Shown piece after piece: positions 6,150-43,976 of a stretch of DNA of 64,000 nt (its first letter is position 1; every line of letters begins with the position of its first letter). The notes beneath the pieces were generated by a model. That model was not told the DNA's origin. It saw only the letters and a program-made list of their open reading frames with translations, and ran no database searches. The stretch is from Candidatus Dojkabacteria bacterium. GTDB taxonomy: Bacteria; Patescibacteriota; Dojkabacteria; SC72. The DNA lies in the NCBI GenBank assembly GCA_028694805.1, contig JAQVKD010000001.1:25549-89548 (forward strand), in the 5' to 3' direction. A program made the translations under genes and the position numbers.

Positions 6150-6320
6150 TTACTGTATCATTGCTTTTATGTTCTGTAATTCATCATTTGAAAGTGGTTT
6201 CCATTTACTCAGTAAAGTGTTGGTCTCTAGATATTCCTTAGATTCTTCATCACTTGCTCTTAAAGTTTCAAATAGTGTATGAAAGAGCATATACTCAATT
6301 GATAACATCAGTAATGACAT
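6150..6320 (-). CDS. small protein with KWKPLSNDELQNIK tail (56 aa), not in ORF track
   Basis: Own translation ends ...LLSKWKPLSNDELQNIKAMIQ. No clear SD, so the start is uncertain. Confidence 0.35.
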   Translation of the reverse strand: MSLLMLSIEYMLFHTLFETLRASDEESKEYLETNTLLSKWKPLSNDELQNIKAMIQ

Positions 6321-25173: not shown

Positions 25174-26298
25174 TTAACTCGAACTTAGTGTCATTAATAC
25201 AACAATGCCTAGTCCTGCTGCTAATATCACATAAGGCGAGCTAAAAACACTAGGAAGTGTTGTAGGTTGTGAATTACAGCTTAGAACTGATGCAGATTGT
25301 TCAAATCCAAATTTAACACATAACTGCTTCTCTATATTTGTTGCTTTGCATGCTATTGATGTTGTTCCATTGTCATTTCCAGCAAAATTTAGTCCCACTG
25401 CATTATTCATATTTGATGTTACCCACATACTTCCAGAATCTCCTGGTTGTGATACTGGTATTGTTGGATTTGGATTTGAAATAACTAAAACATCATCAAA
25501 TGGAATCACTAATGTTGTTCCGCCAACTGTATATTCAACATCAAAAGATGAATTTGTAGATTCTACAATTCCGTCCATACATCCAGTAGTTCTTCCTGCT
25601 TTTTTAACTTTCATTCCTATGCTTGATGTAACACTTTTGTTGGTATATAAGTTACAAATATTTGGTTCTGAAATTGCTATTGAATTTATATCTGCAGTAG
25701 GTGCAGCATAAGCAGCGTCAATAGTATTTTTAGTGAGTAGCAAACGAACCGACTTTTCTAATGTGCCTGCTAAATTACTGATGTTTCCTCCATCAATATT
25801 TCCTGGTTGTATTATTGGCTCTCCTTTTAATCCTTTATATGGCATTGATTCAATGTCCCATGCTAATACATGATTATTTGATAGTATAACAGTTCTTCCT
25901 ATATTATCTCTGACAAAACATCCAAGAGTTCCAGTGATACTTAACTGACTTCCGTATAAGCCTCCGCTGATTCCTCCTAATATTGGTCTATGTTTGTCTT
26001 TGAACTGTAAAGTTTTCATTGAGTTCCTTGAATCATTATTTAATTTTGATCTGTCTCTCACTTCTACGAACGCACGCATTTCTGTTTTTCCTGTTATTTT
26101 ATATACTATTGGTATTCCATAAATAGATCTTGGAATAAGGTTTTGTAGTATTGGTGTTTTATCTTTTAAGTATACAACTATTTGATGTTCATTTCCAAGT
26201 CCTGTAACTGAACTATGTGTTAATCCGACACCTACAACTCCAGGAATCTTCTTTAGCTCTGATTTAGCCTTTTCAAATGCATCCTGATTATAGGACAT
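25174..26298 (-). CDS. trypsin-like (S1-family-like) serine protease with C-terminal TM anchor
   Basis: ILSNNHVLA (His) and QPGDSGSMWV (GDSG-type Ser). C-terminal PYVILAAGLGIVVLMTLSSS. Confidence 0.55.
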   Translation of the reverse strand: MSYNQDAFEKAKSELKKIPGVVGVGLTHSSVTGLGNEHQIVVYLKDKTPILQNLIPRSIYGIPIVYKITGKTEMRAFVEVRDRSKLNNDSRNSMKTLQFKDKHRPILGGISGGLYGSQLSITGTLGCFVRDNIGRTVILSNNHVLAWDIESMPYKGLKGEPIIQPGNIDGGNISNLAGTLEKSVRLLLTKNTIDAAYAAPTADINSIAISEPNICNLYTNKSVTSSIGMKVKKAGRTTGCMDGIVESTNSSFDVEYTVGGTTLVIPFDDVLVISNPNPTIPVSQPGDSGSMWVTSNMNNAVGLNFAGNDNGTTSIACKATNIEKQLCVKFGFEQSASVLSCNSQPTTLPSVFSSPYVILAAGLGIVVLMTLSSS

Positions 26299-28202: not shown

Positions 28203-28880
28203 TTATTTTAACAACGATAACAGAGTAATTGCAGTAAGTCCTAATCCAGCATATACTACATACGTTTTTGGAATACAATTTCCTGCTACACAATAATTTT
28301 TAGTGAGGTCACATTCTGGAGGACAATCACTTATTATAACAGGACATCCTGTATCACATGATGCTAAATCTGGATATTGACCAGTAGTTCCTGATGGTGC
28401 AGGCTGACAGTTTCCTGGACTTATACAATTATATCCTCCACCTGGTACTGGAGTAACATTTATAATGCAAGAATCTGTATTACTTGTTTTTGAACCTGAT
28501 GAACATGAATCTGTTACATATACAGAAACAACATAATTCCCTAGTAAAGAAAATGTATATGGTATTGATGATCCTGTTAATGATGTATCAATTACTCCTC
28601 CTGGTTTTGTTATTGACCAGTGATAAGTATAAGGAGGAGTTCCTGATGATGCTGATGCCGTTAAAGTTTTTATAGTGTTTTGTAAAAGTGAAGATGGACA
28701 TGCTGCAAGACTTTTTACTGATACTTGTTTGTTTATTTCATTTACATTATATGATTCATTTAATCTATAACCTTCTCTGTATAGCTTCTCCACTGATTCT
28801 ATTGATGAATTAGTTATGTCTTCTACACCAAGAGATTTAAATTCAATGTTCATAATATTATTATAGTTATTTTCCTGCAA
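28203..28880 (-). CDS. Ig-like (SGTPPYTYHW) protein with CxPK-TM C-terminal module
   Basis: N-terminus is paralogous to 26339..28183. C-terminus CPPECDLTKNYCVAGNCIPKTYVVYAGLGLTAITLLSLLK. Confidence 0.55.
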   Translation of the reverse strand: MQENNYNNIMNIEFKSLGVEDITNSSIESVEKLYREGYRLNESYNVNEINKQVSVKSLAACPSSLLQNTIKTLTASASSGTPPYTYHWSITKPGGVIDTSLTGSSIPYTFSLLGNYVVSVYVTDSCSSGSKTSNTDSCIINVTPVPGGGYNCISPGNCQPAPSGTTGQYPDLASCDTGCPVIISDCPPECDLTKNYCVAGNCIPKTYVVYAGLGLTAITLLSLLK

Positions 28881-29271
28881 AGTTATACTGTCTCAGTCTT
28901 CCTCTTCCAGTTCTAGCTTCAAAACTGCTATCTTTGTATAGATTTGCATTTAAATCACTGGTCTGACTGTCAACACTCATATTATTTAATTCTTGTTCTG
29001 AAAGAGGTTTCCATGTTCTAATATCACTACTTAAATGTGCAGATGGAGCAGATATACAACAACATTTTGGCGTTAATATACCACAATCTAAATATCCTGG
29101 AGCACAACTCTCGAAATATCCTCTAGAATACTCCGGACCTTTAGGACATTCTGGAGTACATACACTAGGAGAACATGGTTCAGTTATTATTCCCATTGAT
29201 TTTAGTATATAGTATGATAATACAATTCCTCCTCCGTAAAGGATAATTGTTCCTGTATCACTTCTTGCCAT
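28867..29271 (-). CDS. TM protein, WKPLSEQELN-motif family, Cys-rich
   Basis: ...SSDIRTWKPLSEQELNNM... internal motif. N-terminal TM. Confidence 0.5.
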   Translation of the reverse strand: MARSDTGTIILYGGGIVLSYYILKSMGIITEPCSPSVCTPECPKGPEYSRGYFESCAPGYLDCGILTPKCCCISAPSAHLSSDIRTWKPLSEQELNNMSVDSQTSDLNANLYKDSSFEARTGRGRLRQYNFAGK

Positions 29272-29272
29272 A

Positions 29273-30148
29273 TTAATCTCTCCCTCCCATCATCATTAAT
29301 AAAAGAAATCCTGCAGCTCCTATAAATAAATAATTTTTAGGAACACAGTTTCCAAGTATACATAAATTTTTATCTGAAGGACAAGTTGCCGGATCGCATC
29401 CACCTCCGGATGGTGGTATTGTTTCTTGTACTTTTACAATTACAGTATTTGGTAAGTCAGAATCAGAAGTCAAACAATGTTCAGCACCTGACCATGCACA
29501 ACACCATCTACAAACAAGTGTATATGTTCCTATAACATTAAGGACAAACGATGTTGATCCACATCCATTTGCATCAAATACATGCACACCATTATCAACT
29601 CTTATGTCTCCAACTCCTATTGGATTTCCAGATATTGCAACTATTCTCCACTTTGGTGTTATTCCCAAACAATATGCGGTAGTTGACCTTACAGATGCTG
29701 TTAGTAAATCACCAGGTTTTACTATGAGAGAAGACTTTCCGTTCACTAAAAATGAGTTATCTTGTTGTGTACATGTCTGAGAAGTTGTTGCTGTAATAGA
29801 TTTACATCCAGTACCAGATTGACCGTTTGAACTACATATAGTATTTCCGCTTGCATTATATATTACAAACCACACTATGGTATATGTTCCTGCAGGAACA
29901 GGTTTAATAAATGGTTCTGATATAAATGTTCCTGATGTCTGACCGATTACAGTGGTCATTAAAGGTGTGAAGAAACTAAAATAAGCTCCAGTTGGCAATT
30001 GAATTTTTAGTTCTGCCTTATACGAAATTCCTCCTTCCCCTGCAGAAAATGAAACATCACATGCAACATTAACAGTATCATTTGAACCAGCATTGCATGT
30101 ATTTCTATTTCCATTTACTGTAAAATAACCTGATGTTATGTTACACAT
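29273..30148 (-). CDS. Cys-rich protein with CVPKNY-TM C-terminal module
   Basis: C-terminus GGGCDPATCPSDKNLCILGNCVPKNYLFIGAAGFLLLMMMGGRD. Confidence 0.55.
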   Translation of the reverse strand: MCNITSGYFTVNGNRNTCNAGSNDTVNVACDVSFSAGEGGISYKAELKIQLPTGAYFSFFTPLMTTVIGQTSGTFISEPFIKPVPAGTYTIVWFVIYNASGNTICSSNGQSGTGCKSITATTSQTCTQQDNSFLVNGKSSLIVKPGDLLTASVRSTTAYCLGITPKWRIVAISGNPIGVGDIRVDNGVHVFDANGCGSTSFVLNVIGTYTLVCRWCCAWSGAEHCLTSDSDLPNTVIVKVQETIPPSGGGCDPATCPSDKNLCILGNCVPKNYLFIGAAGFLLLMMMGGRD

Positions 30149-30167
30149 TTTGTTTACCTCTTATATT

Positions 30168-30938
30168 TCATTTAATCATTTTCAATAAAAATAATGCTAC
30201 AATTCCTGCTCCTGCGTATACAACATATGTTTTTGGAACACAGCTTCCTAATACACAGAAATTTTTGTCAGATGGACATGTAACTGGATCGCACGTAGTT
30301 CCTCCTCCACCTCCTCCTCCTGTCGGAACGCATGTTGTTCCTTGACATATATAACCGGCTGGACACGGTGGAACACATCCTCCTCCACCACTTGACGTGA
30401 AAATAGCGTATAAATTTCCTGATGGCTGTGTTACTGTTCCTGTGAACGGATTTCCTGTTGTACTTTGAGAGCAACTTGCATCTGTACAGTATTTACTAAA
30501 GCTATATCCTGATGAAGGTTTTGCTACAAAGCTAAATACATCATTTATAAAGAAATTGATTGTCTGTGATGTTGTTACTGTTGTTACTTTTCTTGTATTT
30601 CTGTATACATCTACTGTTCCACCTACATTATTTTGAATATATACAGTTATTGTTGCTTGCGTTCCACTGAAATAAACACCTAGATAACCATCTTGTGATA
30701 TTGTTCCACTAAAAGGATTAGAGGTTGTAGATAAAGAACATCCAGTATCAGCACAGAACTTATTAAATGAAAACCCTAGTTGAGTATCAGGATATGCATA
30801 AAAAAAGAACGTATCTCCTACATTGTATTGAACTGGAACTATTCCGTCTCCTGGATTAACTACAGCAACAATACTTCCGTTACGACTTGCTTGAAGAGTT
30901 CCACGTCCTTCAACTATTTCAATGTTTACTGTGACCAT
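30168..30938 (-). CDS. protein with two tandem beta-sandwich-like domains plus CVPKTY-TM C-terminal module
   Basis: Internal duplication: FSFNKFCADTGCSLSTTSNPFSGTISQDG versus YSFSKYCTDASCSQSTTGNPFTGTVTQPSG. C-terminus TCDPVTCPSDKNFCVLGSCVPKTYVVYAGAGIVALFLLKMIK. Confidence 0.55.
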   Translation of the reverse strand: MVTVNIEIVEGRGTLQASRNGSIVAVVNPGDGIVPVQYNVGDTFFFYAYPDTQLGFSFNKFCADTGCSLSTTSNPFSGTISQDGYLGVYFSGTQATITVYIQNNVGGTVDVYRNTRKVTTVTTSQTINFFINDVFSFVAKPSSGYSFSKYCTDASCSQSTTGNPFTGTVTQPSGNLYAIFTSSGGGGCVPPCPAGYICQGTTCVPTGGGGGGGTTCDPVTCPSDKNFCVLGSCVPKTYVVYAGAGIVALFLLKMIK

Positions 30939-30947
30939 TTATCCATC

Positions 30948-31472
30948 CTATATTTTATTTGTTACATATAATTCTAACGACTTTATATATAAAGGTGTGC
31001 TTCCTTTGTATACATAAGTGTAGTTATATACACCATTCCCTTTTACATCATCGGTGTCCCATACCGTTGTAAATACTGTTCCATAATTTGGACAGGAAGG
31101 AAATCCTACATAAATAGGGATTTCGTTATTTACTATTCCTATTGTTGGAAGTGCTGATTGATTATTCACATATGCATATATTTTTCCATAACCTTCGGAT
31201 GTGCTACATACATTATGAAATCGTATATCTACTATATCAATTGTTTTATCAATAGGAAGATTAAATGTTATGTTTAGATTTATAGACTCACCATCATTTA
31301 GAACTAACATATAGGAACGAGACTCTATGAATTGCCAGTGCTTACATATTAATGAATTTACACTTAAAGTATATGTATATTTACTTGATTGAGGTATTTG
31401 TGATGCTGATTTATTCATTAATAGTATGGCACCTAAACCTATAAATCCTGCAATGATCCAATTTTTGTCCAT
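30948..31472 (-). CDS. N-terminally anchored hypothetical protein
   Basis: N-terminal TM or signal sequence IIAGFIGLGAILLM. Confidence 0.45.
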   Translation of the reverse strand: MDKNWIIAGFIGLGAILLMNKSASQIPQSSKYTYTLSVNSLICKHWQFIESRSYMLVLNDGESINLNITFNLPIDKTIDIVDIRFHNVCSTSEGYGKIYAYVNNQSALPTIGIVNNEIPIYVGFPSCPNYGTVFTTVWDTDDVKGNGVYNYTYVYKGSTPLYIKSLELYVTNKI

Positions 31473-31500
31473 TTGATATCATTTATTTTGTTAAGTTTCT

Positions 31501-32355
31501 TTATCGTTTTATTAACATCATTAATAAAAGAAATCCTGCAGCTCCATAAACATATGTCTTAGGTTGACAACCAAATCCTATGAATGATAAACAAAATTCT
31601 TTGGTTGGATCACATGATGGAACGCATCCTTGTGCTCCATCACCTCCTCCTGTACATAAATTATTACAGTTTGATGTCGTATATATACCAGATCCATCAC
31701 AGTTATCTGATATACATTGCGTTCCTATACATTTATATTTTGGAGTTGTACATGAAGGATTACAAACATTATTACAATTTGATGTCGTATATATACCAGA
31801 TCCATCACAGTTATCTGATATGCACTGTGTTCCCGTACATTTATATTTCGGGGTAGTACATGAAACACAAGATCCGTTCTGACATATATTAGTCGATGGA
31901 CATGCGTTACATCCGTATGTGCATGCAGGTTCTCCTAACCACTTGCATATTGTTTTATTATCTGCGCAGTATGTTTGACCACTTGTAGGTTGACATGGTT
32001 GAAATGAACCTACATTAAGTGATCTGCATGAATTAGGCGTTCCTGACGCTTCGCAGTACAGCGGAACTACCTGTACAAGATCAATGAAATAGTTTCCCAC
32101 TGAAGAGAGATAACCTATCACTGCATCAAATATATATGTTCCAGAGGAAGATACGTTCACACTATTACTGTTGACTGATGCATAAGTTCCGTCAGGTTTT
32201 TTATACCTGAACCATACATGAATAGAACCATATGCAGAGTCTGAATATAATCTTGCCTTACATCCAATCAAATCAGAACCAGATGCACTACACGAACTTC
32301 CTGATAACATGACTCCGCTTTTTGTGAATCCATAATCCTGTATTGTACAACCCAT
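31501..32355 (-). CDS. Cys-rich protein with duplicated TTPKYKC(T/I)GTQCISDNCDGSGIYTTSNCNN module and CQPKTY-TM C-terminus
   Basis: Exact 33-aa duplication. C-terminus EFCLSFIGFGCQPKTYVYGAAGFLLLMMLIKR. Confidence 0.55.
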   Translation of the reverse strand: MGCTIQDYGFTKSGVMLSGSSCSASGSDLIGCKARLYSDSAYGSIHVWFRYKKPDGTYASVNSNSVNVSSSGTYIFDAVIGYLSSVGNYFIDLVQVVPLYCEASGTPNSCRSLNVGSFQPCQPTSGQTYCADNKTICKWLGEPACTYGCNACPSTNICQNGSCVSCTTPKYKCTGTQCISDNCDGSGIYTTSNCNNVCNPSCTTPKYKCIGTQCISDNCDGSGIYTTSNCNNLCTGGGDGAQGCVPSCDPTKEFCLSFIGFGCQPKTYVYGAAGFLLLMMLIKR

Positions 32356-32429: not shown

Positions 32430-32603
32430 TTATATTATTCCTTTTTCTCTTACTATTTTCAAAGATTGTAAATCTATCCCTTCGATATCTTCAAGACTTA
32501 TTAATTCAGAACTTCCTAGCTGTCTTAGTACTGGAATCTGATGACTTAATACTATAAATCCTACAGCACCTACCAATACAAGCAACCAGTCTCTGCTTAC
32601 CAT
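32430..32603 (-). CDS. small TM protein, GIDLxSL family (paralog 3; 57 aa), not in ORF track
   Basis: Own translation MVSRDWLLVLVGAVGFIVLSHQIPVLRQLGSSELISLEDIEGIDLQSLKIVREKGII. Confidence 0.45.
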   Translation of the reverse strand: MVSRDWLLVLVGAVGFIVLSHQIPVLRQLGSSELISLEDIEGIDLQSLKIVREKGII

Positions 32604-32639: not shown

Positions 32640-32846
32640 TTATATAAATCCTTTTTGTCTTGCTACATGTAAAGAAACAAGGTCAATTCCTTGAATATTT
32701 TCAAGCTTAATAGTAGATAAAGAATGAGATGTTGACAATGTAGCCGATAGCGAAGAAGCTCTTACCATCCCAGGTGAATATGCTGCGAGTAATACAGCTC
32801 CTAGTATTCCTACTCCAATAAGAATTGCGTCTGTTTTAGTTGGCAC
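32640..32846 (-). CDS. small TM protein, GIDLxSL family (paralog 2)
   Basis: C-terminus LENIQGIDLVSLHVARQKGFI. Confidence 0.5.
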   Translation of the reverse strand: MPTKTDAILIGVGILGAVLLAAYSPGMVRASSLSATLSTSHSLSTIKLENIQGIDLVSLHVARQKGFI

Positions 32847-33104: not shown

Positions 33105-33737
33105 TCATCTCATTCCGTACATCTTATAGATAGGCGAATCTGCCTTGTCCGTTGCCATTTGACCGTAATATACCTGCCTTCTTATTCTCTGGTAATAATC
33201 TTCTGCAGGTAATATTGAAGGTGCTGCGTTAATTCTGTCTATTGAATTAACTTGTGCCATCGATTGCTGATGTGGGATTGCACCATAAGTTCTGTTAGAT
33301 GACTGGTTAGCCTGCTGTAATTGTTGTAATTGTAGTTGTGATTGTTCTTGCTGCATCTGAAGTTGTGATTGTGTTTGAGATAATTTCTGTTGCAATATTC
33401 TGTACTCTTTGCCTTGTAATGTTATGTTTACATTTGCTGGATTAACTCCTTTGTTTGTTAATCTAATAAGAACATCATACCCTACACTTCCTATTGCTGC
33501 TGCAGCTGCTCCATCAAGACCCATCTTAGTAAATAGATAATACAATCCAAGTTTTGGAGCATTATTAGCAGCTCCTGCTATTATTTTATCAGATGTAGCT
33601 GCAGTGTCTGGTAAGTTTGGTTTTATCTGTTGTTCTACATAACGACCGGAAAATCCACTTACTATGAATCCTCCGCCTATTACAGCCATGTCCTTTGCCA
33701 TTTCTGTATATCTTATTCGTTCTCTATATTCTGCCAT
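33105..33737 (-). CDS. YGMR-family protein (Gly-rich N-terminus, Q-rich coiled coil, C-terminal YKMYGMR)
   Basis: MAEYRER...GGGFIVSGFSGR...VLIRLTNKGVNPANV...YKMYGMR. Paralog of 38012..39055. Confidence 0.55.
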   Translation of the reverse strand: MAEYRERIRYTEMAKDMAVIGGGFIVSGFSGRYVEQQIKPNLPDTAATSDKIIAGAANNAPKLGLYYLFTKMGLDGAAAAAIGSVGYDVLIRLTNKGVNPANVNITLQGKEYRILQQKLSQTQSQLQMQQEQSQLQLQQLQQANQSSNRTYGAIPHQQSMAQVNSIDRINAAPSILPAEDYYQRIRRQVYYGQMATDKADSPIYKMYGMR

Positions 33738-33791
33738 GTTTTAATTTCCTCCTATTAGTATCATTTATTAATGCTTCTATTCAATATGTTG

Positions 33792-33938
33792 TCTATCTTC
33801 CTCTTTTTCTCCTCTCTTCTTTCTTCGTAGTTGCTCGCCTTTGTGATGGCGTCATTTTTCTATACCACACAGAACCACACACTGCACCAGGATCTCGAAC
33901 TTTTCCCTTTTTTTTAACCTGGTTAATGCAACTTCTCA
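33792..33938 (-). CDS. small basic protein (48 aa from the internal ATG; possibly longer), not in ORF track
   Basis: MRSCINQVKKKGKVRDPGAVCGSVWYRKMTPSQRRATTKKEERRKRGR. An upstream SD-preceded ATG at 33964-33966 is out of frame by 1 nt in a C4 run. Confidence 0.35.
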
Positions 33939-33985
33939 TCCATCTTTTAGGTGGACGCTTGGGCATAAATTCCTCTCTGTAAAAC

Positions 33986-34174
33986 TTAAATTACAAAGTA
34001 TTTCATCAATTCATATGTACTTGGTGAAGGGCATGTTGCTTGGAATGATGCCATTTTAGTATTAAATGCTGCTGTATCAGCACACATTTTACTTCCTGCT
34101 CTCATTGATGCAAGGTACATTCCTCCGACTACTGCCGCTGCTGCTATAATAGCTGTTGTTTTCGTATCAGGCAT
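33986..34174 (-). CDS. small TM protein
   Basis: AIIAAAAVVGGMYLA helix. Confidence 0.35.
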   Translation of the reverse strand: MPDTKTTAIIAAAAVVGGMYLASMRAGSKMCADTAAFNTKMASFQATCPSPSTYELMKYFVI

Positions 34175-34256
34175 ATTTTATTTCCTCCTATATTTTATTA
34201 CTTGTTATTTAAATTATTCTTTAATGTAACTAATGTTATATGATTTTAATTATTTA

Positions 34257-34997
34257 TTAAAACATCCTTGCATTTTTGTTACCCAATACATTTCTATGTA
34301 ACTTATTCCAAAGTGCTGGAAGTGAAACGTATTTAGTTTTCTTATAAAATTTTATCACTGCATCTTCATATCTATTCATGTCGTATTCTGCTTCTCCTAC
34401 AGTCTTACCTTCTAATAATGCCTTCAGAAACACTAAATGTATGTCACGAAATATATCTTGAGAATGTATACTATCTACAGGAAATAACATTAAATCTGTA
34501 TATCCACTGTAAACTTCAGCTCCATAACGTATAGCACATTTTCCTAATTGACTTGCGCTATAACATGCTACAGTAAACACTATTGTATCTTTTAATAAGT
34601 TGACATTTGTTTCGTTCATACACAATGGATTACAAATATCAGGCATTGCTAAACATGTGTTTACACACCCAGATGAATATATTAAAGGTTTAATTATTTC
34701 ACGTAAATTTGGCATGTTTAGTAACTCATCTATATCAAACTTTCTTGTTATTACACATTCGCTCTGTCCTTGAATGCTAGATGGACATCCATGAGAAAAT
34801 GTAACTACGAGTCTTGGTCTGTAATATTGCAAAGATTTTGTTACATTGTTATATGTGACTTCGTTTTTCTTTATGTCGATAACAGTGTAACCATAGCTTT
34901 TCATCATCTTGTATGCTTTCTCAGCCCAGTCATATGTATGAATTGTTGGATCGTTTTCCTTTCTAGGTCTTAAAAGAACTATTGTTGAATTATTCAT
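34257..34997 (-). CDS. putative caspase-like (clan CD) cysteine peptidase
   Basis: VVTFSHGCPSS (His-Gly) and VFTVACYSAS (Ala-Cys) resemble the clan CD catalytic dyad context. The fold assignment is inferred. Confidence 0.3.
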   Translation of the reverse strand: MNNSTIVLLRPRKENDPTIHTYDWAEKAYKMMKSYGYTVIDIKKNEVTYNNVTKSLQYYRPRLVVTFSHGCPSSIQGQSECVITRKFDIDELLNMPNLREIIKPLIYSSGCVNTCLAMPDICNPLCMNETNVNLLKDTIVFTVACYSASQLGKCAIRYGAEVYSGYTDLMLFPVDSIHSQDIFRDIHLVFLKALLEGKTVGEAEYDMNRYEDAVIKFYKKTKYVSLPALWNKLHRNVLGNKNARMF

Positions 34998-35016
34998 GTA
35001 TTTTCGTGAGTTTAGT

Positions 35017-35556
35017 TTATTTCAGCTTCAATTCTTCTTTCCTAAAGTTTTCATTTATTACTTTATCTACATTTAAGTATAACTCCTCTTCGTCTCCTTC
35101 ATTTTTTTCAATTAAGATATTTTCAATATCAACAAATTGTTTAGCTTTATGTTGACAATTTGTTCCAGGATTGTTTTTTATCATACAAGTTACTTTTCCG
35201 TCCTTCGGTGAACCTATACAACTAACATCGTTTTGTTCATGGCAGTTACTGAATATGTCTAGTGCACTTGGTTCATCTGATGATGTTGTAACATGACTAT
35301 GAAATGTACCAACGGGTTTTTTTCCTCTTTCTCTGCATTCTGACTGAAATTTTATGTATCTTTCTTCACTATGAGAACTCTGAGAATGTTCTTGACCAGG
35401 ATATATCTTACTAGTTTTTTCATCAAGACATAAAGTAAAACCGTGTTCTTTATCAGTATCTTGAGTCTTTTCTATTAGCTTACTCATCTTTAATACTGTA
35501 GTGTCAGAAAAGACATATTTTCCAATTCGTTGATCTCTATGTTTGTTAGTTTTCAT
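35017..35556 (-). CDS. JAB/MPN+ (JAMM) metalloprotease-domain protein
   Basis: EHGFTLCLDE ... HSHVTTSSDEPSALD (E...HxHx8Sx2D). Confidence 0.6.
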   Translation of the reverse strand: MKTNKHRDQRIGKYVFSDTTVLKMSKLIEKTQDTDKEHGFTLCLDEKTSKIYPGQEHSQSSHSEERYIKFQSECRERGKKPVGTFHSHVTTSSDEPSALDIFSNCHEQNDVSCIGSPKDGKVTCMIKNNPGTNCQHKAKQFVDIENILIEKNEGDEEELYLNVDKVINENFRKEELKLK

Positions 35557-35559
35557 ATA

Positions 35560-36105
35560 TTAAAGTATCTTCTTACTCTTAAACTTCTTCTCTGTGAAAT
35601 TATCAACAGCGTTTAATAATGCAGTTTTCACTGTTTCTCTGTCTACAGGATCGATATATACATAAGTATCTTCGATGTCAACAAATGGTTTAGCTTCATC
35701 TTGACACGACTTACCTTGATTTCTTTTAATGTAGCACTCTATTTCTCCTTTTTTATTCATTCCTACACAATCAATTTTTGATTCTTCATCACAACTGCTA
35801 AGCAAGTCCATTGCTGAAAATCGAGTTTCTGATGGTCGTGGATGAGTGTGATAACTTCCAATATATTTATCATGCTTTCCTTTACAAGTTTCAGGAACCA
35901 TTATGCTTACATAATCCCCAACCGATGACTTCCCAGGAACCACCTTTCTATCCTCACTTAAACATAAAGCCATTCCATGTTCTTTTCCATTTACAGCAGT
36001 TTTATGATTAAGTTCATTCATCTCTCTAATTGTTTCTTTTGGAATGAAGAACGAATTAACTATTTCGTCGCCTGTCTTTTTAGTATGTTTAGTTCCCTTA
36101 TGCAT
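35560..36105 (-). CDS. JAB/MPN+ (JAMM) metalloprotease-domain protein
   Basis: EHGMALCLSE ... YHTHPRPSETRFSAMD is the canonical E...HxHx7Sx2D JAMM motif. Tandem paralog of 35017..35556. Confidence 0.7.
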   Translation of the reverse strand: MHKGTKHTKKTGDEIVNSFFIPKETIREMNELNHKTAVNGKEHGMALCLSEDRKVVPGKSSVGDYVSIMVPETCKGKHDKYIGSYHTHPRPSETRFSAMDLLSSCDEESKIDCVGMNKKGEIECYIKRNQGKSCQDEAKPFVDIEDTYVYIDPVDRETVKTALLNAVDNFTEKKFKSKKIL

Positions 36106-36152
36106 AACATTTGATATTCTTTAGAAAAACATAATTTTTCTGACTTAGATAT

Positions 36153-36617
36153 TTATTTTTTACCCATCATCAATAAAGCTAATACTCCACCACCGACTAT
36201 TAAATACTTATTTTGAACTCCTGCAGTACAACCATTCCATATTCCTGTTCCGCATTCAGTAGCTGCTGTTGGGAAAGAAGATATAGCACTATCTACTACA
36301 GGTTGAGGAAGCGTGTTATCAGATGCAGGTGTTCCATCCTTATTTGTCTTTTCTATTGTAATTCCATTACAATCTATTGTAATCCCAGGAGTTTTCACTA
36401 CTGTTATCAAATAATTATAATTTGGATCTGACTTATTTACATATGCAAGTATATATACTGCAAAAACCGAAACCTCATACCATCCATCACCAACGTATAT
36501 ATTTATATGAGGGAGACTTACTACAAGCTTTGAATCTATTGTTTTATTTTTAATAGCATCAATAATTTGTTGCTCTCGTGGAGTACATGTCTGCAGAGAA
36601 TTATATTTATAGTTCAT
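36153..36617 (-). CDS. hypothetical protein with C-terminal TM anchor plus KK
   Basis: C-terminus YLIVGGGVLALLMMGKK. ATG at 36615-36617; the track start is TTG. Confidence 0.5.
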   Translation of the reverse strand: MNYKYNSLQTCTPREQQIIDAIKNKTIDSKLVVSLPHINIYVGDGWYEVSVFAVYILAYVNKSDPNYNYLITVVKTPGITIDCNGITIEKTNKDGTPASDNTLPQPVVDSAISSFPTAATECGTGIWNGCTAGVQNKYLIVGGGVLALLMMGKK

Positions 36618-36778
36618 CAATATTCCTCCTGTAAAATTTTCTCAATACTCTTTAACTTTTTTCCTATTTCACTATCTGCTTCTATTTCTTCTTCTAGTTG
36701 ATCTACAGTTAAAGTAGTTGCTCCTGCACATATCTTCGTGTTCTCTAAATCATCACGTGTCAACTTTTCGTACTTCAT
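36617..36778 (-). CDS. small acidic protein (53 aa), not in ORF track
   Basis: AAGGAG SD. MKYEKLTRDDLENTKICAGATTLTVDQLEEEIEADSEIGKKLKSIEKILQEEY. The stop overlaps the downstream start (ATGA). Confidence 0.4.
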   Translation of the reverse strand: MKYEKLTRDDLENTKICAGATTLTVDQLEEEIEADSEIGKKLKSIEKILQEEY

Positions 36779-36797
36779 GATACATATCTCCTTACTG

Positions 36798-37097
36798 TTA
36801 CTCCATTCTTCTACTAATGTTCACTGTTGTATTCGCAAAAACATCAACATGTCCTGATGCATCTTTATAACCTTGTAATTTAAATACAAAATTTCTTCTT
36901 CCTTCTGTTAGAGGAACTGCTGTTGGTGTTCTCTGAATTTCTTCAGTATACGGATTTGTAAGTATTCTTCCGTCTATATATATTGTTGCACCTTGAGGAT
37001 CCGAATTAAAATGAACTATTCCTGTTCCTCTTTCTAGATATTTTATTCCTTGTGATACATCGAGTGATTTATTTTTGTTACATGAACTACATGCCAT
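36798..37097 (-). CDS. PEGA-domain protein
   Basis: HFNSDPQGATIYIDGRILTNPYTEEIQRTPTAVPL carries the PEGA signature. Confidence 0.55.
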   Translation of the reverse strand: MACSSCNKNKSLDVSQGIKYLERGTGIVHFNSDPQGATIYIDGRILTNPYTEEIQRTPTAVPLTEGRRNFVFKLQGYKDASGHVDVFANTTVNISRRME

Positions 37098-37283
37098 TTT
37101 AATCCATCCTTTCTGATGTTATGACATTTAATTATTTGTGATATTTTTAAAATATTGAAGAATAGAAGACAGGATTTGGTAGAGTGATAAAGACCAATCC
37201 TGCCATTTTATAAATATTATATATTTACACCATCCACTCCATTATACCATAATGCAGTTAACCCCTAATCAAATAAAAAATTC

Positions 37284-37316
37284 TATAGAGATATTGTATC
37301 CACAACAATATCTCTA
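37284..37316 (-). terminator. 13-bp perfect inverted repeat (7-nt loop) followed by a T-run on the minus strand
   Basis: atagagatattgt-atccaca-acaatatctctat. The minus strand then reads agaattttttatttg. Lies just downstream of 37336..37950. Confidence 0.5.
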
Positions 37317-37335
37317 TTTGCAAGTTATTATTGAT

Positions 37336-37950
37336 CTAACTTGTCCAGAGGTCAACTTCAAGAGCAAACTTGATATGGGTAGTGTCTATCTGTATATCAG
37401 GTAATATAGGTCCACCTGTTGGACTTTCACCGACTACATACAAGAACCAGTGCTCTTCACCATTCAACTCAATTCCTTGAGTGAATCTGTAATATTCACT
37501 ACTGGTCTTAAACTGGTGACCAAGCTGAGTACCGACTGCTGCTATTCTCTGTTTAGTTATTGACACATCCTGGTAGAATGGTCTTGCTAACTGAACAAGG
37601 TCTTCAGTTGTTTTCTCTTTGGTGATTCGTATTTTTGTCAGTGGACTGATTTCCTGATCTGTTGTGCCTGCAAGTCTGACTCTCAGTGCATGCGCAGTGT
37701 TGAAATCCTGTCCTGCAGGTACTTGCTGAGTACCCATAATTGACATCTTCTGCCCAGCTGGACATCTCACATCAATAACAGCAGTTGTATTTCCTACTGG
37801 TCCACCTGTCAAAGTTACTATTCTTGTGTTCTTTTCATCAAGAACAATCTGTGATCTTCTCCATCCCAAGCTTTCCAGATACTCCACATAAGAAGTATAG
37901 TCCGGTTTAGCACTTCTTCCGTAAGCCTGCATTGAATTTATTTCTGCCAT
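37336..37950 (-). CDS. putative structural protein, PLTKIRITK family (paralog 1 of 3)
   Basis: VIDVRCPAGQKMSIMGTQQVPAG...PLTKIRITKEKT...GPILPDIQIDTTHIKFALEVDLW aligns along its whole length with 43332..43976 and 42530..43090. Confidence 0.55.
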   Translation of the reverse strand: MAEINSMQAYGRSAKPDYTSYVEYLESLGWRRSQIVLDEKNTRIVTLTGGPVGNTTAVIDVRCPAGQKMSIMGTQQVPAGQDFNTAHALRVRLAGTTDQEISPLTKIRITKEKTTEDLVQLARPFYQDVSITKQRIAAVGTQLGHQFKTSSEYYRFTQGIELNGEEHWFLYVVGESPTGGPILPDIQIDTTHIKFALEVDLWTS

Positions 37951-38011
37951 ATTTTTCCTCCTATTAATTTATGTTTGTCATTTATTTATTTTAATTTTCT
38001 TAATCTCTTTT

Positions 38012-39055
38012 CTACCTCATTCCGTACATGTCGTACATTACTCCAAGACCCTTGTCCTGCATTTGACCAAAGAATCTCTGACGTTCTGTCTTTTCAGTGT
38101 GCTGCTCAAATGGCATTGCACCATACGGCATCGAACCGAATTTTCTTTCTCTTTCTACAACCTGAGGACTCTGTTCAAATGGCATTGTGCCATATCTTCT
38201 CTGTCTCTCCATTACATCTGGAGTCCAGGGAAGCTGGTTTATTGGACCGATCTGCTGTGTAGCTCCTGGAGTATATCCTGTTTCAGGAAGCCACGGAATT
38301 CCTGCAGAATTTGGATTTGGCATTGCACCATATTCTCTCTGCCTTTGCTGAACTGCAGGACTTGCATCCCCAGCATACCTAAAATCTGCAGATGAATCTG
38401 CTCTGTAAGGTGTCTGTCTTACATAAGACCGATAGTCTTGCCACTCACGAGTAGCTGTCGGTGGTGTTGGAGCAGGTGGGTTCTGAATTATTGTTCCAGG
38501 TTCTGCTAATCCCTGTCCAGGAAATCTTCCAGGTGGTATTTCAGTTCCAGGCATTGAAGGAGATGGTGGATATGTTCCAGGTCCAGCTAATTTCTGAAGA
38601 GCTTTATTTAACTCTGTTCTCAGAATACTATTTTCTTGAACAAGCTTCTGTACAGTAGCTGGATTCATTCCATTTCCAAGTACTCTATATCCTGCCATTC
38701 TAACATCATAAGGATTAACTCCTTTATTTGCCAATCTCAGGACTGAGTCATACACAACAGAACCCGCAAGAGACTCTGCTGCCTTCTTTGCCATTGGATG
38801 CTTCGCATCAAATTTCTTTGCTAAGACATACGCACCAGCTTTGGCACCATTGTTAGCCGCCCATGCAAGAACTTTTTTAGTAGCAGATGATGTTTCATCA
38901 ACCTGTCCTGATGCAGTGGCTGAATCCTTAACAAGAGAAGTTTCTATTGCTCTTCCTATTGCACCGCCTACTATAAAGCCGCCACCTATTCCTATACCAT
39001 CGCCAGCAACTTCATTAGCAAATGCCTTTAAATCTCTTTCTCTATAATAAGCCAT
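38012..39055 (-). CDS. YGMR-family protein (Gly-rich N-terminus; RQRRYG/MPFEQ repeats; C-terminal MYDMYGMR)
   Basis: MAYYRER...GGGFIVGGAIGR...SVLRLANKGVNPYDV. Repeats ERQRRYGTMPFEQ, ERERKFGSMPYGAMPFEQ, ERQRFFGQMQ. Confidence 0.55.
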   Translation of the reverse strand: MAYYRERDLKAFANEVAGDGIGIGGGFIVGGAIGRAIETSLVKDSATASGQVDETSSATKKVLAWAANNGAKAGAYVLAKKFDAKHPMAKKAAESLAGSVVYDSVLRLANKGVNPYDVRMAGYRVLGNGMNPATVQKLVQENSILRTELNKALQKLAGPGTYPPSPSMPGTEIPPGRFPGQGLAEPGTIIQNPPAPTPPTATREWQDYRSYVRQTPYRADSSADFRYAGDASPAVQQRQREYGAMPNPNSAGIPWLPETGYTPGATQQIGPINQLPWTPDVMERQRRYGTMPFEQSPQVVERERKFGSMPYGAMPFEQHTEKTERQRFFGQMQDKGLGVMYDMYGMR

Positions 39056-39110
39056 ATTTTATCACCTTCATTGTTTTATTTATTTTATTGGCTTTATTAA
39101 TGTTCTATTC

Positions 39111-39221
39111 TTACTTGCACGCACGAACTGCTTTCTTGAAAGCAGTTTTGCCGCCTCTTTTTCCTTTCAAGTGACGTGCCATGCAAGATTGAAATTTAGT
39201 TCTTCTTCGATGTCTTGCCAT
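39111..39221 (-). CDS. tiny Arg/Lys-rich protein P1 (36 aa), not in ORF track
   Basis: GGAGAT SD. MARHRRRTKFQSCMARHLKGKRGGKTAFKKAVRACK. Confidence 0.45.
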   Translation of the reverse strand: MARHRRRTKFQSCMARHLKGKRGGKTAFKKAVRACK

Positions 39222-39224
39222 CAA

Positions 39225-39326
39225 TTATCTCCTTCTAGATGAAAAGTCAGCACATCTTTTTCCGGCTCTTGTCCTTTTCATCCTAATACATCTTGAGCCT
39301 TTCTTCATTCCCTTCTTTCTTGCCAT
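39225..39326 (-). CDS. tiny Arg/Lys-rich protein P2 (33 aa), not in ORF track
   Basis: AAGGAT SD. MARKKGMKKGSRCIRMKRTRAGKRCADFSSRRR. Confidence 0.45.
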   Translation of the reverse strand: MARKKGMKKGSRCIRMKRTRAGKRCADFSSRRR

Positions 39327-39343
39327 CTTCGATCCTTAATTTT

Positions 39344-39415
39344 TTAGTATTTCTTTCTGCGCTTTCTGCACTTATCTTTTCCTTTTACTTTTCCGTATTT
39401 ACATCCTTTTGCCAT
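39344..39415 (-). CDS. tiny Lys-rich protein P3 (23 aa), not in ORF track
   Basis: GGAGGT SD. MAKGCKYGKVKGKDKCRKRRKKY. Confidence 0.35.
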   Translation of the reverse strand: MAKGCKYGKVKGKDKCRKRRKKY

Positions 39416-39417
39416 TG

Positions 39418-39516
39418 TTACCTCCTCTTTCTTCTTCCACCAACGAAATCAGCACACCGTCTTCCGACACCACGTACACGCTTATATCTAACACACTCTG
39501 CACCTTTCTTTGCCAT
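39418..39516 (-). CDS. tiny Arg/Lys-rich protein P4 (32 aa), not in ORF track
   Basis: GGAGGA SD 6 nt upstream. MAKKGAECVRYKRVRGVGRRCADFVGGRRKRR shares the RRCADF motif with P2. Confidence 0.45.
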   Translation of the reverse strand: MAKKGAECVRYKRVRGVGRRCADFVGGRRKRR

Positions 39517-41104: not shown

Positions 41105-42487
41105 TCATAACTTCTCAAACACCTCAACCCATTTATCCACGATCTTAGACCATGTATAATTATAAGAAAACTTGATACATTCATCTTTAATTTTTTTATC
41201 TTCCTTATCCCAATAAGAATGCATTTCTATCATAGCTTCAGATAATTTCTTTTCATTTATTAAACCCCTATAAATTCCATCAGGAAGCATTTGCAATTCA
41301 CAATCTACAAGTATTCCTCTTTTTTTATCTTTTCCTATTAATTCAGGAAACGAACAAATGTTTGTTCCTATATTTGGAACACCACATGCCATGCTTTCTA
41401 ATGTAGGCAAGTTAAACCCTTCCCCGCTACTACTACTTATGTGACAATCAAATATGTTATATAATCTACAAAGAGCCTGTTCAGACCATCCAGTTCCTCT
41501 TCCTCCACTATATGAAAATATTACATTTTTCTCTATTCCTAACTTTTGAACTATTCTCATTAGATTTAATCCAACATTACTAATTGGAACTGTATGTAAC
41601 CATAAAACTGTTCTATCAGTTAATCTTCTATCATCTTTTATCGTTAACTGATAAGCCTTCAACAATCTTTCAATTCTTTTTCTTATTCCAAAATTAGCTC
41701 CTACAAAACCAAAAACATATCTACCTTTTACAATTTTCCTTAATAGACTAACTAGATAATATCCATATATAAATCTTTTTTCAACATCATCCCACTTCAT
41801 TATTCCAACTTCTTCTTCAATGGACTCAACACATAATTCATGATTATCACAGCAAGTCCAGCAACAATTTTCAAATAAAAAATCAGGATTTATTTCTGTC
41901 TTTCCTTCATTTATCATATACCAGCAGTAATCAGCACTATCTAATTCACTATCAGTTAATTTTTTAAATATTTTTTCATTATATCCATGATATACAGTAT
42001 CAAGTACATCAATGCCATTCTTCATTAATTGAGTTGCTCCCCAATTACATTGAGCAACTACTTTCCCCCCACTGTCAGTAAATCTCTTTAATGATTTAAA
42101 ACTTCCAATTCCTAATCCTAATCCATCAACTGGAACATACCATATTCTTTTTGTTATTCCAGCTTGCAAAGGAATATCCAACAGAAAATCCATATCACCT
42201 GTATCACTACCGAATAAATTAAATACTATATCAGGCTTTATTTCCATTAAAGTAGCAAAATATGACGCTTCTTCTCCAATGTGTTCATTTGCAATAGGAT
42301 AACACTCAATTCCATAGTCCCACGTCTTCATATATCCGGAATTGAGACCTGTCATTGTACATTCATAACCTCTCTTTTTTAATTCCAAGATTATGTTCTT
42401 AGTTACATTAGAGAATCCACTATTTCTTTGAAGTGTGTCTGATAGAAAGTGAATTCTTAGATTTTTTGTCATTATTTTTTTACCCAC
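41105..42487 (-). CDS. GT-B glycosyltransferase (GT4-like)
   Basis: SGEGFNLPTLESMACGVPNIGT contains the E-x7-E motif of retaining GT4 enzymes. Confidence 0.65.
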   Translation of the reverse strand: MGKKIMTKNLRIHFLSDTLQRNSGFSNVTKNIILELKKRGYECTMTGLNSGYMKTWDYGIECYPIANEHIGEEASYFATLMEIKPDIVFNLFGSDTGDMDFLLDIPLQAGITKRIWYVPVDGLGLGIGSFKSLKRFTDSGGKVVAQCNWGATQLMKNGIDVLDTVYHGYNEKIFKKLTDSELDSADYCWYMINEGKTEINPDFLFENCCWTCCDNHELCVESIEEEVGIMKWDDVEKRFIYGYYLVSLLRKIVKGRYVFGFVGANFGIRKRIERLLKAYQLTIKDDRRLTDRTVLWLHTVPISNVGLNLMRIVQKLGIEKNVIFSYSGGRGTGWSEQALCRLYNIFDCHISSSSGEGFNLPTLESMACGVPNIGTNICSFPELIGKDKKRGILVDCELQMLPDGIYRGLINEKKLSEAMIEMHSYWDKEDKKIKDECIKFSYNYTWSKIVDKWVEVFEKL

Positions 42488-42529
42488 TTTATTTTTGTAT
42501 AAATATGTTTTATTTATTTTATCACTTCT

Positions 42530-43090
42530 TTACGGTAATTCCCACATATCTAAATCAAGGGTAAATTTAATTTTATTTACATTTATATCTACACTTGGTT
42601 CTATTGCATATATAACTAAATGGTCTTCATTTTTAAGTTCACAACTTTGTTCAAACCTATACAATTGAGCATTGTTCTTAAATTTTGGTTTTGTATCCAC
42701 ATGATTTTTAATGTTAATATCAGAATATTGCATCTTTCCAACTAAAATAATCGTTTCAGATGCTCTTTCTTTTTTTATATGTATTTTAGTAGTTAAATCA
42801 ATTTCATTATCATTATTGTCTAAAAGAATAACTTTTAACGAATGTGCAGCCTTTGGATCAGTGCCCTTTGGAACTTGTCCAACGCCATATACACTTATTT
42901 TCCATCCACATGGACATCTTATATCTATAACAGGTCCAGTACAGCCTTTACTTAAACCTGAAAGAGTTACCAGTCTTTTGTTGGCTTCATCAAGACATAT
43001 CTGATTTCTTATGCAATTATTACTTTCCATATATCTTATATATTCATCATATGTCCTGAAATTTGAATAAGTTTTCATCTTTACCTCCAT
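42530..43090 (-). CDS. putative structural protein, PLTKIRITK family (paralog 2)
   Basis: VIDIRCPCGWKISVYGVGQVPKG...LTTKIHIKKER...NKIKFTLDLDMWE. Confidence 0.5.
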   Translation of the reverse strand: MEVKMKTYSNFRTYDEYIRYMESNNCIRNQICLDEANKRLVTLSGLSKGCTGPVIDIRCPCGWKISVYGVGQVPKGTDPKAAHSLKVILLDNNDNEIDLTTKIHIKKERASETIILVGKMQYSDINIKNHVDTKPKFKNNAQLYRFEQSCELKNEDHLVIYAIEPSVDINVNKIKFTLDLDMWELP

Positions 43091-43344
43091 TAAAAATCAT
43101 CTACACGTCGAGCTATCTTAGATGGTTCAGTTTTAATATCTTTAGCTAGATATTTTATTTCATCAAGTTGTTTTTTTAATTTATTGTCTTTATACTTTTC
43201 AAGCAATGTCGAGTCTTCAGCCAGTTTTATTTTTAAGATTGCTCTTATTGCATTATCATCTAATAGAGACATTCTTCTAATATACTTTATATGGTTTTCT
43301 ATGAATTCGATTTCAGTGTCTTGTTCTGAGTTCATTTTTTCCAC
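43090..43344 (-). CDS. small helical hypothetical protein
   Basis: 84 aa, charged. Confidence 0.35.
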   Translation of the reverse strand: MEKMNSEQDTEIEFIENHIKYIRRMSLLDDNAIRAILKIKLAEDSTLLEKYKDNKLKKQLDEIKYLAKDIKTEPSKIARRVDDF

Positions 43345-43976
43345 CTATCTATTTCTAATGAGAATTTTATATGGTTAGAATCTATTTCTATGTCTGGTAA
43401 AATAATTCCTTCTTCACGAGTTTCACCTACAACAAAAATAAACAGATGATATTCTCCACATAGTTCAACGATTTCATTAAATCTATACCATCTTGAAACA
43501 TCTTTAGATTTTCCATTTTCATTGATACTAACATCAAAATAGCGTAGACTATCTAGTTGAACAATATCATCATATGCTGTCGCTTTGGTGATACGTATTT
43601 TTGTCAGCGGATGTACTTCAAATCCTTCTGTATTACATAATTCAATTCCAAGAGGATATGCTGTTCTTTGATCATCTCCCATTAGAACGTCTTGAGTTCC
43701 CATGATTGAATATATTTCTCCTGGAGGACAATAAAAATCGACAACACATGAAGTAATTCCAATGTGACAATCTCTAATGACAGCGTCCTTTTCAGTGAGA
43801 GTTTTATGAGTCATTATCCGACCCATACATTCCATATAATCAATGTAATTATTATAATTAATTTTATTTTCTTTCACAACTTCTCTTTTAATATCACATG
43901 GAAGTGTTTCTTTCTTGCCTACATATTTTTTGTACTCTATATAATCTTCCTCGGTTTCTATTCTTTTATTGAACAT
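43332..43976 (-). CDS. putative structural protein, PLTKIRITK family (paralog 3)
   Basis: VVDFYCPPGEIYSIMGTQDVLMG...PLTKIRITKATA...GIILPDIEIDSNHIKFSLEIDRW. Confidence 0.55.
   Translation of the reverse strand: MFNKRIETEEDYIEYKKYVGKKETLPCDIKREVVKENKINYNNYIDYMECMGRIMTHKTLTEKDAVIRDCHIGITSCVVDFYCPPGEIYSIMGTQDVLMGDDQRTAYPLGIELCNTEGFEVHPLTKIRITKATAYDDIVQLDSLRYFDVSINENGKSKDVSRWYRFNEIVELCGEYHLFIFVVGETREEGIILPDIEIDSNHIKFSLEIDRWKK

Follow-up and report, generated by a model that had tools for sequence, protein, structure and literature searches.

The window analyzed here is a 64,000-nucleotide (nt) stretch of contig JAQVKD010000001.1 with a G+C content of about 33%, in which 85 open reading frames (ORFs) were considered and almost all real ORFs are encoded on the minus strand. 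Two of these ORFs are full-length members of a protein family that is real, conserved, previously undescribed and found only in metagenomes, and the longer of the two directly precedes the gene of a major capsid protein. It is tentatively proposed that the family organizes the capsomers of an internal-membrane icosahedral virus on the viral membrane. The two family genes, the segments of their products, and the capsid genes are located as follows.

38012..39055, minus strand: family member 1, full-length, 347 amino acids (aa)
38702..39055, minus strand: N-terminal domain of member 1 (aa 1-118), with MAYYRER, the Gly-rich helix GIGIGGGFIVGGAIG, AANNGAK and DSVLRLANKGVNP
38585..38653, minus strand: conserved helix of member 1 (aa 135-157), VQKLVQENSILRTELNKALQKLA, the best-conserved element of the family
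38366..38584, minus strand: linker of member 1, Pro-rich, variable and predicted to be disordered
38474..38500, minus strand: PGTIIQNPP within this linker, a motif common to the relatives P0042, P0044 and P0238
38057..38365, minus strand: repeat region of member 1, with five [YF]-G-x-M cores
38015..38026, minus strand: C-terminal tail YGMR of member 1
37336..37950, minus strand: major capsid protein, 204 aa, vertical single jelly-roll, 61 nt downstream of member 1
33105..33737, minus strand: family member 2, full-length, 210 aa, with an N-domain as in member 1
33312..33392, minus strand: Q-rich helix of member 2
42530..43090 and 43332..43976: paralogs of the capsid protein

The sequence of member 1 is that of PHP08_00430, a protein of a metagenome-assembled genome at NCBI that is labelled Candidatus Dojkabacteria and lies on a 128,474-bp contig. 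A preliminary description of this DNA had taken the two ORFs to be paralogs, which is borne out by BLASTP: both are encoded on the minus strand and align in two collinear segments, namely, the N-domain (E 3e-8) and the C-terminal repeats with the tail (E 7e-9). Against the family profile, member 1 scored at E 3e-102 and member 2 at E 1e-52. All of the motifs that had been quoted are present: MAxYRER at the N-terminus (MAYYRER in one and MAEYRER in the other), GGGFIVxG (GGGFIVGG and GGGFIVSG), DxxLRLxNKGVNP (as D(S)VL(I)RL[AT]NKGVNP, in the form of DSVLRLANKGVNP and DVLIRLTNKGVNP), and MYGMR, with which both proteins end. Two further features had been assigned to both proteins and hold in part. 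A Q-rich coiled coil is found in the 210-aa paralog, whereas the 347-aa protein carries VQKLVQENSILRTELNKALQKLA instead. The C-terminal repeats are present as five cores in the 347-aa protein (RQREYGAM, RQRRYGTM, RERKFGSM, YGAM, and RQRFFGQM), whereas the 210-aa protein has degenerate copies only (NRTYGAI and RQVYYGQM). The orthologous subgroup of member 2 includes P0035 and L004:15376-16041.

In a collection of 5.8 billion proteins, member 1 has 44 relatives, none of which contains a Pfam domain, and a profile search of 1.84 billion cluster representatives (50% identity) retrieved 121 clusters, with E <= 1e-30 for 57. The family was defined from alignment A3, and its architecture was derived from alignments A1 and A3. 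From the N- to the C-terminus, it comprises a Gly-rich N-domain, the helix QENSxLRTELNKALQKLA, a variable and often Pro-rich linker, two to five repeats, and a fixed C-terminus. Near-invariant polar positions of the N-domain in both alignments are N68, N69, K72, D103, R107, N110, and N114, and the mean column identity over the family is only about 25%. The repeat logo was built from 223 instances gathered with the pattern [YF]G.M, so that its Gly and Met are fixed by selection; it reads [DE]-V-x-E-R-[QE]-[RK]-[KR]-[YF]-G-[AFS]-M-P-F-E-Q, with Arg at position -4 in 88%, [RK] at -2 in 87%, [KR] at -1 in 68%, and Pro at +4 in 43% of the instances. The tail logo, built from 104 proteins chosen for a [GN]M-x ending ([GN]M.$), is [IV]-A-x-M-F-[GN]-M-[LQKR] at the C-terminus, with Phe in 82%. 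In alignment A3 the terminal Met does not vary, and in 101 of the 155 relatives from the database [FY][GN]M stands at the C-terminus with no more than two residues after it. The short C-terminal peptides are thus strongly constrained.

AlphaFold2, run on member 1 with an alignment of 45 sequences, gave a model with a mean predicted local distance difference test (pLDDT) of 63.7. Helices were predicted for aa 9-41, 58-83, and 87-109, together with a confident helix at aa 132-157, in which a 10-residue block of VQKLVQENSILRTELNKALQKLA reaches a pLDDT of 91. In the repeat region, three of the cores have a short helix that stops at their Gly, in sequence that is otherwise disordered; such helices in a disordered context are what would be expected of binding motifs. 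The family had been described as unknown and possibly assembly-associated, and no well-characterized family with an unrelated role was matched. Searches of Pfam, PHROGs, and NCBIfam with both paralogs gave only sub-threshold noise (e.g., Tir, Csm1_N, and DUF6809), and comparison of the family profile with PDB sequences gave only generic coiled-coil matches (E >= 0.03). With Foldseek, the family model had no match at E <= 0.001 in BFVD or the PDB; the top PDB fold matches were three-helix membrane proteins such as PsaL, which at E 0.6-5 are unusable as evidence. The cultured phage and virus genomes of INPHARED (tblastn and megablast) and IMG/VR (family profile scan) contained no match, and literature searches retrieved no description of the virus lineage or of the family.

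The capsid protein at 37336..37950 has 170 relatives with up to 70% identity in BLASTP local alignments and is better conserved than the family itself. To follow the gene order, 33 metagenome or assembly loci were scanned with the family and capsid profiles. The capsid gene comes next after the family gene, on the same strand and with a gap of 11-92 nt, in 23 distinct loci (27 if duplicates are counted). Four further loci (L014, L016, L017, and L029) end too early to show the gene downstream of the family gene. The only exception is the clade of L026 and L027, where the downstream gene encodes an unrelated protein of 247-250 aa instead of the jelly-roll capsid protein. In this clade (P0216-218; L026:8116-9528 and L027:829-2331), the family protein lacks the YGxM repeats and ends in PPVGTLGSL. 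The possibility that these downstream proteins are divergent capsid proteins was considered but gained no profile, Pfam, or PHROG support. The wider module that is shared among loci consists, in order, of a 122-aa protein, the basic ORFs, the family gene, the capsid gene, a 53-aa protein, one or more JAMM proteins, a 246-aa protein, a 62-aa transmembrane protein, and a 57-aa basic protein. The following signals accompany the genes in the window.

39075..39086, minus strand: 12-mer AAAATAAATAAA upstream of the family gene
37981..37992, minus strand: the same 12-mer upstream of the capsid gene
42509..42520, minus strand: the same 12-mer upstream of the GT1 glycosyltransferase gene
37285..37317, minus strand: terminator-like hairpin with a 13-bp perfect stem followed by a T-run, directly after the capsid stop codon

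The three exact copies of the 12-mer compare with 0.46 expected in the window and each lies 20-45 nt before a start codon, which makes it a candidate for a shared promoter element. Sigma-70-type promoters were not enriched around the locus (34 found versus 35.8 expected). The hairpin and T-run suggest that this is the end of a unit made up of the basic ORFs, the family gene, and the capsid gene, and the site is a likely end of the capsid operon transcript.

Taken as a whole, the window is a single-strand block whose genes are virus-like. The product of 929..1648 aligns over its full length with B204, the genome-packaging NTPase of Sulfolobus turreted icosahedral virus (E 2.6e-4), and matches phrog_2666 at E 9e-34, and a D5_N/DUF5906 primase-helicase is encoded at 49038..50420. 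Together, the three vertical single-jelly-roll paralogs, the B204-like ATPase, and the D5-like primase-helicase point to a sphaerolipovirus-type virus with a membrane (Helvetiavirae, now Singelaviria). Genes for GH18/EndoS-like enzymes, a subtilase, PEGA and beta-helix proteins, and glycosyltransferases are present as well; no tRNAs were found in the window. The contig of the window measures 128 kb and the related contigs 90-179 kb, values that refer to contigs and not to established genome sizes, as compared to 17-31 kb for the reference genomes of P23-77 and HCIV-1 (icosahedral virus 1 of Haloarcula californiae). Should these contigs prove to be viral genomes, the virus realm would have its size range extended several-fold. 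Relatives of the capsid gene occur on two short GTDB genome contigs (L036 and L037) binned as Candidatus Pacearchaeota and Candidatus Micrarchaeota, both DPANN, unlike the contig of the window, which is labelled as a member of the candidate phyla radiation. All of these host bins may reflect composition only.

The reading that we prefer, although we give it somewhat less than an even chance, is that the family is a membrane-anchored sub-capsomer organizer or linker, i.e., a protein with a minor structural role or a role in assembly, in an icosahedral virus that has an internal membrane and capsid proteins of the vertical single-jelly-roll type. The adjacency to the capsid gene in 23 distinct loci argues for an assembly-linked role, so that the assembly association proposed in the preliminary description gains support from context. 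The N-terminal module would keep the protein on the viral membrane, be it through the three-helix Gly-rich domain or, in the short variants, through one transmembrane helix, and the helix QENSxLRTELNKALQKLA would serve self-association or a specific contact under the shell. The flexible C-terminal part would display two to five helix-capped E-R-[QE]-[RK]-[KR]-[YF]-G-x-M-P peptides plus the terminal [FY]-[GN]-M-x, and the repeats and tail might dock multivalently on the bases of capsid proteins or capsomers. Capsomers would in this way be recruited and positioned on the membrane vesicle, by analogy with the 'GPS' or sub-capsomer organizers of HCIV-1, HHIV-2 (icosahedral virus 2 of Haloarcula hispanica), and SH1. 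The coupled change in the L026/L027 clade, in which the capsid gene is replaced and the repeats are lost, counts in favor of this proposal.

In cryo-electron microscopy of HCIV-1, HHIV-2, and SH1, organizer densities were seen beneath the capsomers, for which VP10 and VP12 are candidates, the assignment being tentative and several densities having no protein assigned, and membrane-proximal helical proteins under the capsomers organize these vertical single-barrel capsids (PMC6414509, PMC6441041). Like the family as proposed here, VP10, VP12, and GPS-II/III are small, largely helical and membrane-associated proteins that accompany vertical single-jelly-roll capsids, and it has been proposed that they place the capsomers on the membrane vesicle. 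Further parallels lie in the gene order, since the VP12 gene of HCIV-1 immediately precedes VP7, the gene of the small capsid protein, and the gene of VP15 of P23-77, an annotated structural protein, immediately precedes the small capsid gene VP16. As with these organizers, the family gene here adjoins the gene of a vertical single-jelly-roll capsid protein, and the virus encodes a packaging ATPase of the FtsK/HerA type. There is also more than one organizer type per virion, which compares with the two to four members of the family in each genome here. Given the three capsid paralogs, one organizer per capsomer type would fit, but this is speculation. The differences are equally clear: VP12 of HCIV-1 has 94 aa and two transmembrane helices but no repeats, VP10 has a C-terminal transmembrane helix, and none of VP10, VP12, and the GPS proteins has ERQRxYGxMP repeats or an FGM-x terminus. 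VP15 and VP11 of P23-77, the latter a basic minor capsid protein that reportedly binds lipid and assists capsid assembly, differ in length and composition, have neither repeats nor a conserved tail, and show no similarity to the family. Homology to VP11, VP15, or VP12 of HCIV-1 was rejected at hhalign probabilities of 0.15-0.24%. The family thus shares its genomic position and proposed role with VP12 and VP15, but not its sequence, and would be analogous, not homologous, to VP10, VP12, and the GPS proteins. Another parallel is offered by the C-termini of the P22 and herpesvirus scaffolds and by P30 of PRD1, which are extended or disordered and use a short terminal segment to dock on the coat protein and organize shell assembly. 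Such scaffold and tape-measure proteins resemble the family in this respect, whereas they are soluble or unanchored, have one docking element instead of a tandem array, and show no homology. The function is probably of a known kind, that of the minor capsid or assembly proteins associated with the membrane in internal-membrane viruses, and the unusual device would be the tandem short peptides plus a fixed tail on interchangeable anchors.

This device can be seen from a comparison of anchors and tails. In at least 10 relatives (P0235-P0239, P0244, P0253, P0266, P0042, and P0044), the N-domain is exchanged for one Gly-rich transmembrane helix, AIGAGxGLxxYH[FY]xL, while the helix, repeats, and tail are kept. 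P0265 has the reversed order, with the repeats first and the transmembrane helix last, and in six clusters (P0228, P0232, P0249, P0255, P0270, and P0275) the N-domain is joined to the unlike C-terminal peptide WxPL[ST]xxQ[IM]QEI. As anchors and tails swap, the unit under selection looks like a membrane anchor plus an exchangeable C-terminal peptide, and all three arrangements fit an 'anchor plus exchangeable docking peptide' design. In the short forms P0042, P0044, and P0238, the linker motif of member 1 recurs as RPGTIIQxPPxxxP after an internal FGM[AS]DG and may be another short binding motif.

Two candidates for short forms are found in the window.

268..609, minus strand: probable short form that ends in QQFFNMA and has one transmembrane helix and a Q-rich helix
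5693..6109, minus strand: candidate short form with a transmembrane helix, one RRRYGFM, a Q-rich helix and an LFGMR end

Both endings had been reported previously and are confirmed. An [FY][GN]M-x ending is carried by 4 of the 85 window ORFs, i.e., YGMR by the two full-length members, FGMR by 5693..6109, and FNMA by 268..609, versus 0.02 expected, and 0 of 2000 shuffles gave at least 3. The number of repeat cores declines from five in 38012..39055 through two degenerate ones in 33105..33737 and one in 5693..6109 to none in 268..609. The N-domain pattern GGF[IL]xGG + NNxPK + [YF]DxxLRxxNxGxNP is present in both full-length ORFs and absent from the two shorter ones, and the conserved helix QENSxLRTELNKALQKLA occurs in member 1 only, with Q-rich helices in its place in the other three. 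Against the profile of the short variants, 268..609 scored at E 3.4e-5 among the 85 ORFs, mostly via its transmembrane helix, which makes it a weak short-form member. For 5693..6109, comparison with the family profiles was not significant (E about 3) and a database search returned only itself, so that it is a motif-level candidate. Of the three members previously claimed, two are hence certain, to which one weak short form and this candidate are added. An ORF of the same build as 5693..6109, L022:9716-10207, ends in RMFGMK and is the only non-family ORF with the tail among 1125 in related loci.

Other tails are observed on small proteins of the window. A second tail family, W-x-PLS-x-x-E-[IL]-x-x-I, ends four small minus-strand proteins (5382..5672, 6150..6320, 6343..6789, and 7293..7985) and is of the type that is joined to the family N-domain in the six database clusters. 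A third, [EQ]GIDLxSLxxxxxKG[FIL]I, is carried by small transmembrane proteins at 611..925, 32430..32603, and 32640..32846 (minus strand) and is kept in L001, L004, and L007. The N-terminal RFxELxxKGxLPxxALxK of 611..925 also occurs in P0260 and P0251, which carry the family N-domain.

The Gly-rich small-xxx-small helices, GIGIGGGFIVGGAIG in the long form and AIGAGxGL in the short forms, could be read in another manner, namely, as pore-forming Gly zippers of a holin-like protein or, in the transmembrane plus coiled-coil forms, as envelope-bridging proteins of the spanin type that act in egress or entry. The i-spanins have a transmembrane plus coiled-coil build, which the short forms share. We consider this function highly improbable, since no glycine-zipper, holin, or spanin match was obtained in Pfam or NCBIfam at E <= 1 or in PHROGs at E <= 0.05, a virion component is indicated by the fixed slot, with the basic proteins on one side and the capsid gene on the other, and by the AAAATAAATAAA that the family gene has in common with the capsid gene, and the conserved multi-copy C-terminal peptides would have no role.

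For the sub-capsomer organizer that we favor, the orientation in the membrane is relevant. The charges flanking the transmembrane helix of the short variants weakly favor a cytoplasmic C-terminus. In PRD1-type assembly, the cytoplasmic face of the membrane becomes the capsid-facing one and the capsid proteins assemble there. Taken together, this bias and this mode of assembly suggest that the C-terminal part would face the capsid. A number of points weigh against the organizer. The charge bias is weak, and virion incorporation, membrane insertion, and capsid contact are hypothetical. The predicted helices of the long-form N-domain are weakly hydrophobic and contain the invariant polar residues N68, N69, K72, D103, R107, and N110, so that this domain may be peripheral or soluble. 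Member 2 is not adjacent to any capsid gene. The coupled change of tail and downstream gene is limited to a single clade and could reflect overall divergence. Finally, the hhalign comparison with VP12 of HCIV-1 and VP15 and VP11 of P23-77 remained below 1% probability, and the fold searches of the family model in BFVD and the PDB gave nothing significant.

Both full-length genes immediately follow genes for tiny basic proteins, as had been noted previously.

39418..39516, minus strand: tiny basic Cys-containing ORF, 32 aa
39344..39415, minus strand: tiny basic Cys-containing ORF, 23 aa
39225..39326, minus strand: tiny basic Cys-containing ORF, 33 aa
39111..39221, minus strand: tiny basic Cys-containing ORF, 36 aa
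33793..33966, minus strand: 57-aa basic protein, net charge +18, directly upstream of member 2

The first four (39111..39516) are each preceded by a GGAGG-like site resembling a Shine-Dalgarno sequence and lie upstream of member 1. A co-occurrence of the family with such an array in metagenomes was seen: most loci have, upstream of the family gene, between one and four tiny basic ORFs with Cys (20-59 aa, net charge +7 to +24), and some of them are recognizably related to those of the window. At least three types (20-45 aa, two Cys each), e.g., C-x11-14-C 'MKRCKKGTHRSRKGRTCVRTVRR', '...RCADF...', and '...ARCVRK.MA.GKGK...R.C', recur in L001, L004, L006, L007, and L022-L029. In the 'MDWE...' clade, the slot is filled by proteins of about 100 aa ending in KACxGKRGCxFxxC. 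The 57-aa basic protein is conserved in L001, L004, and L007, but it is followed by the member 2 paralog only in the window and L004; the adjacency of basic gene and paralog is therefore not obligatory, as L001 and L007 have the former without the latter.

These neighbors bear on the idea that the family links the genome or nucleoid to the membrane, with Arg-rich repeats that would bind DNA, or the DNA condensed by the tiny basic proteins, and hold it at the inner side of the viral membrane. Besides the array of very basic tiny proteins in front of the family gene in the window and many other loci and the +18 protein in front of member 2, the two to three Arg or Lys per repeat speak for such a linker. 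However, the family proteins have net charges of only +7 (347 aa) and +6 (210 aa), well short of a protamine-like charge, and their repeats are not plain Lys/Arg runs but keep Glu, an aromatic residue, Gly, Met, and Pro, which is atypical for non-specific DNA binding. In L001 and L007, the 57-aa basic gene stands without a family paralog, and the predicted topology of the short forms, itself weak evidence, places the tail on the cytoplasmic, capsid-facing side. We thus regard the linker as unlikely, and the nucleoprotein role that had been considered for the family is not supported. Such a role fits the tiny neighbors rather than the family, given their net charges of +7 to +24 in 20-59 aa; judged from charge and size, they are far better candidates for DNA condensation.

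The basic residues of the repeats can also be read as cleavage sites. According to this idea, the family is a precursor whose tail is cut into peptides during maturation by a virus-encoded protease, for which the window offers the following candidates.

53116..54915: S8 subtilase (Peptidase_S8, E 7e-70)
34257..34997, minus strand: putative Cys protease, 246 aa
35017..35556 and 35560..36105, minus strand: JAMM-like tandem paralogs with H-x-H...S-x-x-D (Prok-JAB, E 2e-5, with a score 0.2 bits under the Pfam cut-off)

Furin/kexin-type subtilases recognize the dibasic consensus R-x-[KR]-R, and in the repeats the basic residues at -4, -2, and -1 stand right before [YF]-G. Since the repeats match this consensus and the virus encodes candidate proteases, namely, the subtilase, the two Prok-JAB paralogs, and the 246-aa protein of the same module, tail processing is a live idea. 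The 246-aa protein is 47-63% identical across related loci and has invariant H-G-C and A-C[YFH][ST] motifs after hydrophobic strands as well as several conserved Cys; on the strength of the invariant motifs, it is possibly a Cys protease with a clan-CD-like dyad. It has no match in Pfam, NCBIfam, or the PDB, however, the subtilase lacks a Pfam match to the kexin-type P-domain, and for none of the candidates is a protease specificity known. The match to the dibasic consensus may be a coincidence, e.g., if the basic residues simply serve binding. The precursor has, in our view, a slim chance of being the correct reading, although processing is compatible with the docking of repeats and tail on the capsid and the two could coexist. 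As a separate observation, the JAMM-like paralogs are kept within the shared module in L001, L004, and L007.

A broader version of the organizer can be formulated, to which we likewise assign little probability. Here, a combinatorial system of anchors and docking peptides would build the membrane-capsid interface of an unrecognized, very large single-jelly-roll lineage (contigs of 90-179 kb), possibly infecting DPANN, and the dibasic repeats would in addition be cut by viral proteases during maturation in the manner of prohormones. At least three C-terminal peptides would be used on shared anchors, namely, FGM-x with ERQRxYGxMP, WxPLSxxEIxxI, and EGIDLxSLxxxxKGxI. With respect to the layout of vertical single-jelly-roll capsids on a membrane vesicle, the family provides a concrete, sequence-defined organizer candidate, and the mechanism would be simple, as short repeated peptides and a fixed tail would bind the capsid protein that is encoded next door.

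Two further observations concern other genes of the window. A similar C-terminal transmembrane anchor (PKTYVxYxGxGxxxLxLL...) ends many proteins that have no obvious N-terminal signal peptide, among them those encoded at 21003..22094, 22143..23540, 25174..26298, and 28203..32355 (minus strand) and two GH18/EndoS-like glycosidases; by their sequences, these proteins look like tail-anchored virion membrane proteins. The orthologue of the GT1 gene at 41105..42487 in a related locus (L004:4628-7240) contains an intein with a LAGLIDADG endonuclease domain, as found in precomputed Pfam annotation.

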